Shown: positions 2,286 to 56,661 of the stretch, in pieces
Layout: each line of letters opens with the position of its first letter
Position numbering within the stretch: the stretch's first letter is position 1
NCBI GenBank assembly: GCA_022706885.1
Contig: JAKJBR010000001.1
Coordinates: forward strand, 118,138-182,137
Length of the DNA stretch: 64,000 nucleotides
Direction of reading: 5' to 3'
From: Bacillota bacterium
Lineage (GTDB): Bacteria; Bacillota; Clostridia; DUPQ01
Program-made: the position numbers and the translations under genes
Notes under the pieces: generated by a model
What the model saw: only the letters and a program-made list of their open reading frames with translations
Databases searched by the model: none
What the model was told of the DNA's origin: nothing

Positions 2286-3964
2286 CATACAAGGATAAGT
2301 ATAATGATTGGTTAAAAAAAGCCGATTCCGATACTATAAAGGAATTGGAAGCTATTAAAGGAAATGAAAAAGAAATAGAAGACAGATTCTATAAAACTCT
2401 GGATTTCGGAACTGCGGGATTGAGAGGCGTAATGGGTGCCGGAACCAACCGCATGAACAAGTATGTAATAGGACAGACCACACAGGCTCTTGCCCGATAT
2501 GTTATAGAGCAGGGCATGGAGAAAAGAGGAGCGGTTATAGCGTATGATTGCAGGATTAAATCCGATGAATATGCAAAACAGTCGGCAACGGTATTGGCGG
2601 CAAACGGAATAAAAGTTTATCTGTACGAGAGTCTGAGATCTACACCGCAACTGTCCTATTCGATAAGGAAACTGAATGCCGCAACCGGTATAAACATAAC
2701 CGCCAGCCATAATCCCAAGCAGTATAACGGATATAAAGTGTACTGGGAAGAAGGATCACAGATATTGGACGACATAGCTGATGCTATAGCCGAAAACATT
2801 TCCCGAATAGATCCTTTTAACGATGTTAAAACCGTGGACTTTAATCAGGCGGTTAAATCGGGACAGATAACAATGCTCGGTAAGGACATGGATGATATGT
2901 TCATAGAAGAGGTTCTGTCCTTAACTTTGAATGACGATATAGACAAGGATGTTAAAATTGTTTATACACCTCTGTACGGTACGGGATTGGTTCCGGTAAC
3001 AAGGATACTCAGAGAAAGAGGATTCCACAATGTGACCGTAGTGGAAGAGCAAAAAGAACCCGACGGAACATTCCCCACCACTCCTTATCCCAATCCGGAG
3101 AATGTTAAGGTTTTTGAAATACCTCTGAAATATGGCAAAAAGACGGATGCCGATATGATAATAGCATCCGACCCCGATTGTGACAGGATAGCCATGATGA
3201 TTAAGAATGACAACAATGAGTTTGTCTTCTGCACAGGCAACCAGACGGGTGCATTACTTGCGGAATACATGTTGTCGCAAAGAAAGGAAAAAGGACTGTA
3301 TTCGCCGAAAGATGCTGTTGTGCAGTCCATAGTAAGCGGCTCGGTTGTGCCCAAAATAGCAAAGCATTACGGAACACATTTCTTTGAAACGCTCACCGGA
3401 TTCAAATATATATGCGGTCTGGCAAATCAATTTGAAAAGACCGGTGAATACAGATATGTATTCGGTTATGAAGAAAGCATCGGATACTGTATAGAAACAT
3501 TTACGCGAGATAAAAACGGAGTCAGTGCGGCCATGATGATGTGTGAAATGGCGGGATATTACAAAAAGCGCGGTATAACTCTTTATGAAGTGCTGACCGA
3601 AATATACGAGAAATACGGTTATATGACGGAAAACCAGATATCTGTGGAATATCCCGGTATTAAAGGGGCAAAAATCAAAAAGCATGTAATGTCGCAATGG
3701 AGGAAGAAACCTCTTCTGAAAATCAGCGGCATTAAATGTTCGGTATGCAAGGACTATATCAACGGATATGAAGGGTTGCCCGCTCAGGATGCCCTTAAAT
3801 ATGAGTTTGAAGACGGTTCCTGGTATGCTTTAAGGCCTTCGGGTACCGAACCGAAACTGAAAGTATATATAAATGCAATGGGACGCTCAAGGAAAGAAGC
3901 CGACGACCTGGTGAAAGTATTCACCGAGGATATATCGGACTATTTGGCAAAGTGCGAGAAATAA
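2282..3964 (+). CDS. phosphoglucomutase/phosphomannomutase (alpha-D-phosphohexomutase family)
   Basis: ORF 2186..3964; start placed at in-frame ATG 2282 ([10 protein letters not shown]) overlapping the kdgK stop; TASHNP active-site motif and GTAGLRG motif. Confidence 0.85.
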
Positions 3965-7329: not shown

Positions 7330-7480
7330 AAAAATCATCATGTACTACATTGCTTGGTGCAATCCTATGGGATTAGCTGTCGGGTTTGGGCCACCAAGCT
7401 GCCCATCTTATCCAGATTCACCCCTTTTCGGTTGGTTCCCCCACTATCAAAACAGATATTCGGATATCCATAAAATAGTA
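7330..7480 (-). ncRNA. candidate cyclic-di-AMP (ydaO/kimA-type) riboswitch in the 5' leader of the CPA antiporter gene
   Basis: Minus-strand reading contains GUGGGGGAACCA ... AAGGGGUGAAUC ... ACCCGACAGCUAAUCC, resembling the conserved GGGGGA-CCA / GGGG-GAAUC / ACCCG-CCGA blocks of ydaO-type c-di-AMP riboswitches as I recall them; leader is 330 nt; boundaries approximate. Confidence 0.45.
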
Positions 7481-53027: not shown

Positions 53028-53784
53028 AAAGTTCTGGAATGACGGTTCCGATGAGTACTATAACAGAGCATATAACATAAACAACAATGCGATAAGGATA
53101 AAAGCCGACCCGTGGTGGGCGTTTCCCGTACCTGTCCGTAATATGATTCAAAATGCGTTTAGCAGTATGAAAGGTATTAAGGTGCTTGTACCGTCAAGCG
53201 GAGACAACGGAGCGGTTTTTGCCTTTCATTTGCTCGGTGCAACAGTTGTCTCTGCGGACATTTCGGAGCAGCAACTGGGAAATGCAAAAAGGATTGCCGA
53301 CAATGAACGCTGGGATATTGAATTTATTCAAGCCGACACTATGAAGTTAGACGGAATGTGCGATAGTGAATTTGATCTTGTCTACACATCAAACGGCACT
53401 CATATCTGGATAAATGACCTACAAGCTATGTATTCAAACTTCAACCGTGTGTTGAAGCCGAAGGGAAAGTATATTATGTTTGAAACTCATCCTTTCAATC
53501 GACCGTTTGACGATTCAGGTGCAAAAATAAAAGTGAAAAAGCCGTACAACGATACAACAGGAAACCATTGGCGAATTATGGATATATTTAATGCCGTTAT
53601 CAGCCAAGGCTTTTATATTCTGCATCTTGAGGAATTTCACGCAGAACCCGGGGCACACGACTTATGGTTTTACAAAACTATTAAAGAAGCCGAAGCGGAC
53701 GGAAACAGGAAATATGATATAAAGCATAATCCGTTCGCGGCTCTGCCGGCATGGTTTGGGCTTTCCTCAATAAAAAGATATTAG
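53011..53784 (+). CDS. class I SAM-dependent methyltransferase
   Basis: ORF 52825..53784 trimmed to ATG 53011 (MESSIKKFWNDG), overlapping GNAT stop by 17 nt; motif I VLVPSSGDNG and VVSADISEQQ. Confidence 0.65.
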   Translation: MESSIKKFWNDGSDEYYNRAYNINNNAIRIKADPWWAFPVPVRNMIQNAFSSMKGIKVLVPSSGDNGAVFAFHLLGATVVSADISEQQLGNAKRIADNERWDIEFIQADTMKLDGMCDSEFDLVYTSNGTHIWINDLQAMYSNFNRVLKPKGKYIMFETHPFNRPFDDSGAKIKVKKPYNDTTGNHWRIMDIFNAVISQGFYILHLEEFHAEPGAHDLWFYKTIKEAEADGNRKYDIKHNPFAALPAWFGLSSIKRY

Positions 53785-53827
53785 GACGAACTTTATTAAA
53801 TAGCACTATTACTATTACCGAAATTTA

Positions 53828-53856
53828 TTGACATTACAAAGATGTGTTGATATACT
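53828..53856 (+). promoter_or_regulatory. sigma-70-like promoter TTGACA-17-TATACT for tyrS leader
   Basis: read directly. Confidence 0.5.
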
Positions 53857-53882
53857 TCGGATAAATTAAAAAGGAGCGCCAA

Positions 53883-53966
53883 ATGGCAGTAAACAGAAAA
53901 CACAGTTCAAATATGTATTATTACAACTATTACTACTTAAATAGGCTTGGGCTGTTATTGTCGTAA
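53883..53966 (+). CDS. candidate tyrosine-rich leader peptide (27 aa, MAVNRKHSSNMYYYNYYYLNRLGLLLS)
   Basis: RBS AGGAG 7 nt upstream; six Tyr codons in seven consecutive positions; followed by intrinsic terminator before tyrS. Confidence 0.5.
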   Translation: MAVNRKHSSNMYYYNYYYLNRLGLLLS

Positions 53967-53993
53967 TTCTTTTGTAGAAACAATTAATGATTA

Positions 53994-54022
53994 GGCTCAG
54001 GCAAACGCTTGAGTCTTTTTTG
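53994..54022 (+). terminator. intrinsic terminator/attenuator hairpin (GGCTCAGGC-aaac-GCTTGAGTC + TTTTTTG) in tyrS leader
   Basis: stem-loop plus U-tract 18 nt before tyrS ATG. Confidence 0.6.
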
Positions 54023-54040
54023 ATGTAAGGAGAAACAGGT

Positions 54041-55213
54041 ATGAATAATGGAAAAACAATGGAAATTCTAATGAAAAATGCGGTCAATGTTTTCAATGAA
54101 GAAGAACTTCGCACAAAGCTGAGCAGCGGGAAATCCCTGAAGGTAAAGTTCGGTGCCGATCCGTCCAGACCGGATTTGCATCTGGGACACACGGTGCCTT
54201 TGAGAATGCTGAAAGTGTTGCAGCAGGCAGGACATCATATCATATTTGTGATAGGCGATTTTACCGGCATGATAGGAGACCCGTCGGGCAGAAGCAAGAC
54301 AAGAAGTCAGCTGTCTTATGAAGAAACCGGAAAGAACGGTCGAACATATTTTGAGCAGGTAACAAAGATATTGGATCCGTCGAAAACAGAGATAGTATAC
54401 AACTCGGAATGGCTGGGAAAGATGAGGTTTACCGATGTTATTGAATTGGCCGGGAAGTATACTCTTGCAAGGATAATGGAAAGAGAGGATTTTTCCGCAA
54501 GGTATTCGAATAATCAACCGATAGGTATTCATGAGCTTTTATACCCTCTTATACAAGGATATGATTCGGTTGCGGTTAATGCCGATATTGAAATAGGAGG
54601 AACCGATCAAACATTTAATCTTCTGGTGGGCAGAGAACTGCAAAAGGATTACGGGCAGATTCCTCAGGTAGTTATGACTTTCCCGCTTATTGCGGGATTG
54701 GACGGAGTGGAGAAGATGAGTAAATCTTTGGATAACTATATAGGTATAGATGAGTCGGCGGAGATAATGTATGAAAAGTGCATGCGGATTCCCGACGGAT
54801 TGCTTACTGACTATTTCAGACTTACAACGGATATTTGTGAAGCAGAGTATACCGATATTATTTCTGAGGATATAAGAGAAGCCCATAAAGTATATGCAAG
54901 AAAGATAGTGGAGATGTACCACGGAAGAGACTGTATTAATGCGGCGGAAGACAGATATAACAGTATTGCCGCAAAGGCAATTCCGGACAATATAGAGGTA
55001 TTTCATATTGAGGAGCATGAGACGGGCATTATTGATGTTCTTGTAAAAACAGGTTTAGCAACATCCAACTCGGAAGCCAGAAGACTGATAGCGGGCAGAG
55101 GTATTAAAATTGACGGTATAACTGTTAATGACTTTAGTGTCAGATTAAAAGGTAAGTTTGTTATATGCAGAGGGAAGAATAAGTTTATTGAAGTAAGAAT
55201 GAAGATGATATAA
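54041..55213 (+). CDS. tyrS: tyrosine--tRNA ligase
   Basis: 390 aa; class I HIGH-like motif HLGH and KMSKS motif; C-terminal S4-like domain. Confidence 0.9.
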   Translation: MNNGKTMEILMKNAVNVFNEEELRTKLSSGKSLKVKFGADPSRPDLHLGHTVPLRMLKVLQQAGHHIIFVIGDFTGMIGDPSGRSKTRSQLSYEETGKNGRTYFEQVTKILDPSKTEIVYNSEWLGKMRFTDVIELAGKYTLARIMEREDFSARYSNNQPIGIHELLYPLIQGYDSVAVNADIEIGGTDQTFNLLVGRELQKDYGQIPQVVMTFPLIAGLDGVEKMSKSLDNYIGIDESAEIMYEKCMRIPDGLLTDYFRLTTDICEAEYTDIISEDIREAHKVYARKIVEMYHGRDCINAAEDRYNSIAAKAIPDNIEVFHIEEHETGIIDVLVKTGLATSNSEARRLIAGRGIKIDGITVNDFSVRLKGKFVICRGKNKFIEVRMKMI

Positions 55214-56223: not shown

Positions 56224-56661
56224 TCAGCATCTGTCGATAGCATCCTTCAAAAGCAATATGGCTTCTTTATATCCTTCAAATCCTTTTCCCGTAACGGTTT
56301 TTATACATACATTTGCAGTGTAGGAATGTTTCCGGAAATCCTCACGTTTTGTAATATCGCTTAAATGCACTTCCACAGCCGGAAGCCCCACGGATTTTAT
56401 TGCATCGGCAATGGCTATACTTGTATGGGAATATGCTGCGGGGTTTATGACTATGGCATCGGAAATCATATATGCATCCTGTATTTTATCGATGATATCA
56501 CCTTCATGGTTGGATTGAAAAATCTCACATTGAATATTGTTTTGCGTACAGATATCCTTTATGTATCTTACTAAATCCGCATATGTTGCATGACCGTATA
56601 TTTCCGGTTCTCTGATACCCAGCATATTCATATTGGGTCCGTTTATAACTAAAAGTTTCAT
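56224..56661 (-). CDS. aroQ: type II 3-dehydroquinate dehydratase
   Basis: 145 aa; LVINGPNMNMLGIREPEIYG and HLSDI motifs. Confidence 0.9.
   Translation of the reverse strand: MKLLVINGPNMNMLGIREPEIYGHATYADLVRYIKDICTQNNIQCEIFQSNHEGDIIDKIQDAYMISDAIVINPAAYSHTSIAIADAIKSVGLPAVEVHLSDITKREDFRKHSYTANVCIKTVTGKGFEGYKEAILLLKDAIDRC

Follow-up and report, generated by a model that had tools for sequence, protein, structure and literature searches.

How does a bacterium match the supply of tyrosine–tRNA ligase to the charging of its tRNA-Tyr when the leader of its tyrS gene lacks the element that is usually found there? It was in tyrS that the T-box mechanism was discovered, the leader of the Bacillus subtilis gene being the founding T-box. 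T-boxes have since been regarded as the rule for synthetase genes in Firmicutes (PMC1262725). The question is raised by 64,000 nt of DNA from a Bacillota bacterium of the class Clostridia (GenBank assembly GCA_022706885.1, contig JAKJBR010000001.1, positions 118,138 to 182,137 of the forward strand), hereafter the window, in which tyrS is preceded by a short leader that is rich in Tyr codons. A first-pass annotation, made from the letters alone, had proposed that this leader works by ribosome-mediated attenuation instead of a T-box, and our analysis leads to the same view: it is very probably a leader-peptide transcription attenuator that would sense charged tRNA-Tyr through the translating ribosome and thereby set the transcription of tyrS. 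At the sequence level the leader has the following defining features of this class of regulators: (i) an open reading frame (ORF) with cognate codons and a Shine-Dalgarno sequence (SD) near a promoter, (ii) a terminator with no later promoter and (iii) an antiterminator that shares a strand with the terminator, and it has none of the features that define a T-box.

The tyrS leader and its Tyr codons

Promoter, ORF with its SD and terminator are all packed within the 213 nt ahead of tyrS, on the forward strand. The promoter, which is of the sigma-70 type (53828–53856), combines a TTGACA −35 box (53828–53833), a 17-nt spacer and an extended −10 (TG-A-TATACT, 53848–53856); it matches 11 of the 12 consensus positions, has the TG of an extended −10 and would start transcription at about 53863–65. 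The leader is about 150–160 nt long. An AAAGGAG SD (53870–53876) lies 6 nt upstream of an ATG at 53883, which opens an ORF of 27 codons and a TAA (53964–66), spanning 53883–53966 and translated as MAVNRKHSSNMYYYNYYYLNRLGLLLS. Its most conspicuous feature is the run of regulatory Tyr codons at 53916–53936, in which Tyr12–14 (53916–24), Asn15 and Tyr16–18 (53928–36) read YYYNYYY; codons 16–18 are the block that is conserved in relatives (the YYY block), and stand 10 codons (nine of them sense codons) ahead of the stop. An intrinsic terminator follows at 53993–54021 (AGGCUCAGGC-AAAC-GCUUGAGUCU and then U5), with a 10-bp stem (53993–54002 with 54007–54016), an AAAC loop and a T5 tract at 54017–54021, or six T in a row if 54016 is included. 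The gene itself (54041–55213) has an AAGGAG SD (54027–54032) 8 nt upstream of its ATG and encodes a 390-residue tyrosine–tRNA ligase (TIGR00234, 353.6 bits, E = 1.6e-105). The promoter, the 27-codon ORF with a good ribosome-binding site, the terminator and tyrS were thus all found at, or within 1–2 nt of, the places where the first-pass annotation had put them, and its reading of codons 12–18 was exact. Its layout also stood, with two distances corrected: 26 nt, and not 28, separate the ORF stop from the terminator stem, and 19 nt, and not 18, lie between the U-tract and the tyrS ATG.

Two properties of this arrangement are important for what follows. First, a promoter scan found no usable promoter between the terminator and tyrS, the sole match (9 of 12 positions) overlapping the start codon, and every tyrS transcript must therefore read through the terminator. 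Second, the Tyr run (at least five Tyr in seven codons) is unique in the window in all six frames, and the frequency of Tyr trinucleotides in the window (0.048) leads one to expect only about 2e-5 six-of-seven runs per 213-nt leader, which excludes a chance origin of the run.

The searches for a T-box were uniformly negative. The T-box covariance model gave no match at E ≤ 10 in 53600–54200, and at gathering score it matched neither the window nor any of 42 related loci, while the leaders of 11 relatives contained neither a T-box nor any other family at Rfam gathering thresholds. The T-box sequence AGGGTGGNACCGCG has no match near the leader with up to 3 mismatches, and the three matches to AGGGUGGNACCGCG (≤3 mismatches) in the window, against 6.2 expected by chance, are all distant from it. 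The absence of a T-box sequence and of a specifier-loop architecture, as first noted from the letters, is hence borne out by covariance-model and sequence searches of this leader and of its relatives' leaders. Other known RNA families fared no better. In 53600–54200, zero Rfam families match at E ≤ 1, the five matches at E 2.4–7.7 are all eukaryotic snoRNA or lncRNA models, and none of the Rfam amino-acid leaders (His, Thr, Trp, Leu; Leu/phe RF01743) is among the matches at E ≤ 10. With Rfam 15 at gathering thresholds, the whole window has nothing at the leader and one family elsewhere, a c-di-AMP riboswitch of the ydaO/yuaA type (RF00379, 66.8 bits; 7346–7475, reverse strand).

Competing RNA structures and a modelled ribosome

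What would make this terminator conditional is a second structure built from one of its arms. When the RNA is folded only up to the terminator 3' arm, a long antiterminator hairpin of −16.8 to −18.2 kcal/mol forms (z = −2.7 for the window antiterminator at −16.8 kcal/mol), to be compared with −14 to −15 kcal/mol for the terminator alone. Its 5' strand, region 2 (GCUUGGGCU GUUAUUG, 53945–53960), lies within the final codons of the ORF (R-L-G-L-L-L), and its 3' strand, region 3 (53985–54002), contributes 53985–91 to an upper helix and 53994–54002 to a lower one. The latter segment is also the terminator 5' arm, and antiterminator and terminator are mutually exclusive for that reason, as the folding check suggested by the first-pass annotation had anticipated. 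The pairing of 53943–53953 with the terminator arm that was suspected then is real, more precisely as 53945–53953 with 53994–54002, and is extended by a second helix (53954–60 with 53985–91). A third element, region 1 (ACAGUUCAA, 53902–53910), is the 5' strand of a predicted anti-antiterminator: in ribosome-free minimum-free-energy folds it pairs with 53947–53955, and the unconstrained fold consists of this 1:2 helix and the terminator.

The effect of a ribosome was modelled by masking the A-site codon and 12 nt downstream during folding, which is an assumed footprint. With the A site on Tyr codons 12–16, the antiterminator is predicted to remain intact (−18.2 kcal/mol); it weakens with the A site on codon 17 (−14.5 kcal/mol) and codon 18 (−10.1 kcal/mol), and is abolished by a ribosome at the stop codon (−1.1 kcal/mol), where the terminator alone forms. 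As modelled, this is the behaviour that a trp-type attenuator requires. The first codon of the YYY block sits 17 nt from the start of region 2, a spacing that resembles that of Escherichia coli trpL.

These elements can be assembled into a simple scheme. Transcription would begin at the 53828–56 promoter and a ribosome would load on the leader ORF. With an ample supply of Tyr-tRNA(Tyr), this ribosome would reach the TAA (53964–66) and cover region 2 (53945–60); region 3 would be left unpaired, the terminator (53993–54016) would form and RNA polymerase would stop at the U-tract, 19 nt before tyrS. A shortage of Tyr-tRNA(Tyr) would stall the ribosome on the Tyr codons (53916–36) and region 2 would stay free to pair with region 3 once the latter has been transcribed; the antiterminator, which is predicted to be as stable as the terminator, would then preclude it and tyrS would be transcribed. 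Without any translation, region 1 (53902–10) would sequester region 2 and termination would be favoured. Translation of the leader ORF, transcription–translation coupling and a response to tyrosine are the parts of this scheme that we infer from the sequence.

A natural variant touches region 1. Position 53899 is A in the window (Lys6) and C in five other strains (Gln6), and C is predicted to extend the 1:2 helix (GACAA with UUGUC), for which the energy is then −16.6 kcal/mol, as against −11.5 kcal/mol with A. The anti-antiterminator of the window strain may thus be slightly weaker.

The leader in relatives and what selection acts on

Our first impression, from scans of genomes and metagenomes, was that the element is species-specific. 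A search of species-representative genomes and JGI metagenomes with the tyrosyl-tRNA synthetase (TyrRS) as query yielded 160 loci, in which the leader was found in the same species only (98% TyrRS identity), that is, in five near-identical strains (L001 and L081–84) whose leaders differ from that of the window only by K6Q, by a polymorphism close to where transcription starts and by a T-to-C change in the terminator that turns one G.U pair into G-C (in L083 and L084); some 35 clostridial relatives at 58–65% TyrRS identity have neither a Tyr-rich upstream ORF (uORF) nor a T-box. This impression was overturned by the loci of relatives from a larger protein database, which holds TyrRS relatives at 79%, 75–76% and 63–68% identity. 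A homologous leader stands directly upstream of tyrS in 12 of the 12 loci examined (63–79% TyrRS identity), which settles in the affirmative whether related species have the Tyr-rich ORF. These retrieved relatives, which belong to the L161–L178 series, are referred to below as the 12 lineages; the subgroup of the window includes L161–L167, and the others are more distant.

All lineages have an ATG, 26–29 codons, the YYY block 10 codons before the stop and the terminator core GGCUCA(A/G)G, the terminator being conserved in every one of them, and the leader stop invariably lies 70–78 nt upstream of the tyrS ATG. Examples of the peptides are MAASMQNNTYTHQYNYYYKSRLELLLS in L161, MAASIQNNTYTYQYNYYYKSRLGLLLS in L164, MGIATKKTSANLYQSVSYYYGNRLGLLLP in L168, MAVTTEKMNVYYYRSASYHYGNRLGLLLP in L169, MMRMNHTAYTLSVSYYYGNGLGLLPV in L174 and MIMAMQKANSYLYNASSYYYGNRPGLLLP in L178, a genome labelled Spirochaetia by NCBI. 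A purine-rich element (GAGG, GGAG or AAGG) precedes the leader ATG in most lineages, start codon and SD being less clear in L162 and L178, and a TTGACA-like −35 with a TGnTATACT-like −10 is found at the same position in most relatives (only the extended −10 is recognisable in L178).

That these leaders are one family is indicated by searches across the subgroups: profiles trained on nothing but the distant subgroup find the leader of the window, both as an nhmmer profile (E = 3e-4) and as a covariance model, which aligns to it at full length (53863–54030, 30.6 bits, E = 7e-4). With the same two methods, no second copy of the element was found in the window, in all 178 loci or in the leaderless loci. 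The genes upstream vary by lineage (beta-lactamase-family, acetyltransferase, a tRNA gene, a divergent PadR, PhoU, EF-G-like) while the leader stays with tyrS, and the element therefore travels with this gene. The TyrRS genes that carry a leader group together as one clade in a neighbour-joining tree, with a leaderless clade as sister, and this is most simply read as a single origin of the leader and its vertical retention thereafter.

The pattern of change within the peptide is informative about what is being selected. Across the 12 lineages, 35 of the 36 codons of the YYY block encode Tyr (20 TAT and 15 TAC), the exception being one CAC (His), and the distance from the block to the stop is identical in all. 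Outside the block, every leader contains between one and three more Tyr codons, which are not placed alike from lineage to lineage. The interchange of TAT and TAC, together with the mobility of the extra codons, implies that selection acts on Tyr decoding rather than on a nucleotide motif. A translated leader could in principle report a broader signal, such as general translation speed or the queuosine-34-dependent decoding of NAY codons (Tyr, Asn and His, which are read by tRNAs with queuosine at position 34). Whatever slows a ribosome before it reaches region 2 would promote the antiterminator, and in the window group (the window and the L161–L167 leaders) 9–11 of the 27 codons are NAY, but nothing in the peptide is invariant except Tyr, the distant group has non-Tyr NAY codons at background frequency (2–3 of about 24), Asp codons number zero and the regulated gene is tyrS. 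We consider such a sensor unlikely. The more specific idea that the leader couples tyrS to the queuosine-modification state, or decoding speed, of the NAY tRNA set in addition to the charging of tRNA-Tyr strikes us as very unlikely.

The tail of the peptide tells a different story from its Tyr codons. R-L-G-L-L-L looks conserved as protein, and its changes are radical for amino acids and neutral for base pairing: GGG to GAG replaces Gly by Glu and a G.U pair by A-U, CUG to UUG replaces C-G by U.G, AGG to GGA replaces Arg by Gly, and in L178 CUU to CCG replaces Leu by Pro, with a shifted pairing register. Since such changes keep the pairing, the tail is constrained as RNA, that is, as the antiterminator 5' strand. 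The N-terminal half of the peptide drifts between lineages. It is against these facts that another explanation has to be held, in which the ORF is an independent small-protein gene with a constitutive terminator, or a chance ORF, and tyrS is expressed by leaky, unregulated readthrough. A 29-codon version of the ORF was indeed called as a gene in L176, and the tail is hydrophobic. Functional peptides do not evolve in this way though, with pairing-preserving Gly/Glu, Arg/Gly and Leu/Pro changes in the tail and an N-terminal half that is not conserved; the ORF stays 70–78 nt from tyrS regardless of the genes upstream; its 3' end is complementary to a terminator arm in all lineages; and a strong constitutive terminator ahead of a presumably essential synthetase gene that has no downstream promoter is implausible. 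This explanation is the most improbable of those that we have weighed.

If the leader is an attenuator, its alternative structures should be conserved as well as its codons. In 12 of 12 lineages, the RNA that spans the ORF tail and the terminator 5' arm folds into a single hairpin of −16.8 to −27.7 kcal/mol, predicted to be at least as stable as the terminator of the same lineage in each case; relatives of the window have −19 to −28 kcal/mol. The z-score is −1.7 in L178 and lies between −2.7 and −5.3 in the other 11 lineages. Its 8-bp core (CUUGGGYU with GGCUCARG) is 97% paired over 14 sequences, as against 14–64% when the partner strand is slid. Pairing was scored with motif-anchored pair tables and a covariance-model alignment, in which one pair is displaced by a gap in the rows of the window and L001. 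A MAFFT alignment of the antiterminator region of the 12 lineages yielded no structure with RNAalifold, the GGCUCA(A)GGC arms of the subgroups being misaligned by 1–2 nt. The terminator-state structure is 86% paired over both subgroups, with 7 pairs changed on both sides, a result reached by 0 of 500 shuffles; examples of double changes are C-G to U-A in helix 105–110 with 135–140, and A-U to C-G at the terminator base. An antiterminator in every lineage, and modelled ribosome positions that behave as an attenuator demands, lend computational and comparative support to the leader-peptide layout that was proposed at the outset.

A strong hairpin (GUCUGUUUC with GGAAACAGAC) is predicted in the distant subgroup, where it overlaps the antiterminator strand and has the three Tyr codons as its 9-nt loop. 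This structure is one argument for a non-ribosomal riboregulator, in which the decision between antiterminator and terminator would be made by a trans factor bound to the leader RNA, the ORF being incidental. Candidate factors are uncharged tRNA-Tyr acting through a highly degenerate T-box, a small molecule, or TyrRS itself, for which the autoregulation of thrS in E. coli offers a parallel. The alternative helices are conserved in the leader RNA, and UAU or UAC in the loop could in principle be read by the tRNA-Tyr anticodon in the manner of a T-box specifier. What speaks against such a regulator is, besides the lack of any match to the T-box model even at E ≤ 10 and of a T-box sequence, that (i) the leader is short, and no conserved element that would bind the tRNA acceptor end was seen by eye, (ii) start, open frame, stop position and an SD-like element (clear in most) are kept in 12 lineages while the N-terminal peptide drifts, (iii) extra Tyr codons outside the loop persist and yet move, which fits the counting of codons and not a single binding site, and (iv) the Tyr codons of the window group lie outside any conserved hairpin loop. 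We regard a regulator of this kind as quite unlikely, a shade more so than a broader ribosome-based sensor.

Several points nevertheless count against attenuation by a stalled ribosome, the reading that we prefer. The support for it is of a computational and comparative nature only. In the model, the footprint of a ribosome at the last two Tyr codons already overlaps part of region 2, and in full-length folds only a few kcal/mol separate the terminator state from the antiterminator state, so that the outcome would depend on kinetics. The antiterminator core has one-sided, wobble-compatible changes only and zero double compensations, and either conformation has about 91% of its pairs formed in the distant subgroup, with a covariation that is not above that of shuffles. 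The covariation of the terminator state is supportive, not decisive, the alignment having been fitted to the structure and the sequences being related. The anti-antiterminator (1:2) helix is predicted in both subgroups but differs in form, that of the window subgroup being built differently. Finally, there may be a second, T-box-controlled tyrS elsewhere in the genome.

Some observations on relatives and neighbours deserve mention in their own right. The strains L081–L084 are represented by contigs from anaerobic-digester or activated-sludge samples. In the sister TyrRS clade (L002–L028, L064, L086–L091), tyrS often directly follows a large PpiC/SurA-like lipoprotein gene where the upstream region was inspected, and none of those inspected regions contains a leader, a terminator or a T-box, which suggests operon-type expression. 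A Tyr-codon run in L005 (1483–1503) was rejected as a leader, as it lies inside a 493-aa lipoprotein-like gene. In L029, a 25%-GC member of the Clostridia from another TyrRS clade, a strongly initiated uORF (2937–3004, MDYYYYYYYYKNLRKGKEKKLK and a stop) contains (TAT)8; it has no terminator and its TGA overlaps the tyrS ATG (ATGA). The repeat is the only trinucleotide repeat of at least 5 units in the 7-kb locus, and the nearest relatives (L019 and L085) are without it. The uORF may be a separate Tyr-codon device that works on translation, or the repeat may be no more than an (ATT)8 microsatellite. Three TyrRS proteins that are 63–65% identical to that of the window (P0090, P0092 and P0117) carry NCBI labels of Spirochaetia or Treponema, and the one Spirochaetia-labelled locus that was examined, L178 (GCA_026002025.1), has the same leader, which points to a joint move of tyrS and its attenuator from one phylum to another or else to genome bins with wrong labels. 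In the window, tyrS is followed by an mscS-like channel gene and then, about 1 kb downstream of tyrS and on the opposite strand, by aroQ (56224–56661, reverse strand), which encodes a type II 3-dehydroquinate dehydratase of the shikimate pathway.

There is also a practical side to recognising the leader, because several assemblies carry a tyrS whose called start falls within the attenuator. The gene is called 11 or 17 codons too long (401-aa P0005 and 407-aa P0012), from an ATG inside the attenuator terminator; examples are L162 (2001–2036, real start 2034) and L167 (2001–2054, real start 2052). In one further assembly, the 29-codon leader itself was annotated as a hypothetical gene (L176, 1833–1922).

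Relation to known regulators of synthetase genes

The closest parallels in design are the enterobacterial attenuators (trpL-trpEDCBA, hisL, pheL-pheA and pheM-pheST). Like the leader described here, they have a promoter-proximal ORF with a run of cognate codons, exclusive 1:2, 2:3 and 3:4 helices (predicted ones in our leader, the 1:2 helix in a form that varies between subgroups) with a terminator just before the structural gene, and a stop codon that is placed so that the terminating ribosome masks region 2. The differences lie in the amino acid (Tyr), the gene (tyrS) and the hosts (uncultured Clostridia), and there is neither sequence similarity nor a match to an Rfam leader. The closest parallel in purpose is the T-box of B. 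subtilis tyrS, which has the same gene, the same signal (tRNA-Tyr charging) and the same output (antiterminator versus terminator in a 5' leader). The T-box senses by direct contact between tRNA and RNA, whereas the leader here is proposed to sense via the translating ribosome.

Leader peptides on synthetase genes are not without precedent. Attenuators of this type have been predicted for trpS and leuS in Streptomyces, at a time when none were known in Firmicutes (PMC1262725), for a hisS paralogue and hisZ in bacilli (PMC2965389), and for cysS in Rhodobacteraceae (PMC8632094). As here, these predictions were made by comparative genomics, from a uORF with cognate codons and a terminator before the synthetase gene, and the Bacillus his case is likewise one of a Firmicute leader peptide that replaces a T-box; all differ in amino acid, gene and clade, their sequences are unrelated to ours, and none concerns Tyr or tyrS. 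The first-pass annotation was right to take the T-box as the Firmicute norm for synthetase genes, but its presentation of the present leader as exceptional has to be tempered, leader-peptide attenuators having already been predicted for hisS and hisZ in bacilli (PMC2965389). Another Firmicute cis-regulatory leader, the Leu/phe leader, has different codons and a different sequence, without a match in our Rfam search. In Lactococcus lactis, this leader is a leader-peptide attenuator. It is listed for that species as RF01743 (PMC2864571).

We found no description of a Tyr-codon leader peptide or of tyrS attenuation in the literature searched, most subscription journals being outside its coverage. 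A tyrS attenuator is expected in principle, is apparently undescribed and is notable mainly because tyrS is the archetypal T-box gene. We lean towards regarding this leader as the founding example of an undescribed family of Tyr-specific attenuators that stands, in one clade, where the tyrS T-box normally is. The module is compact, comes in 13 natural variants and could be tested directly or used as a Tyr-responsive part.

As for the biology of these organisms, the prediction is that a vertically coherent clade of uncultured Clostridia, together with one Spirochaetia-labelled metagenome-assembled genome, uses a cognate-codon leader peptide on tyrS. This would add a further case in which a leader peptide takes the position that a T-box normally has on the same gene, and tyrosine would join the short list of amino acids that are known or predicted to be sensed by ribosome stalling.

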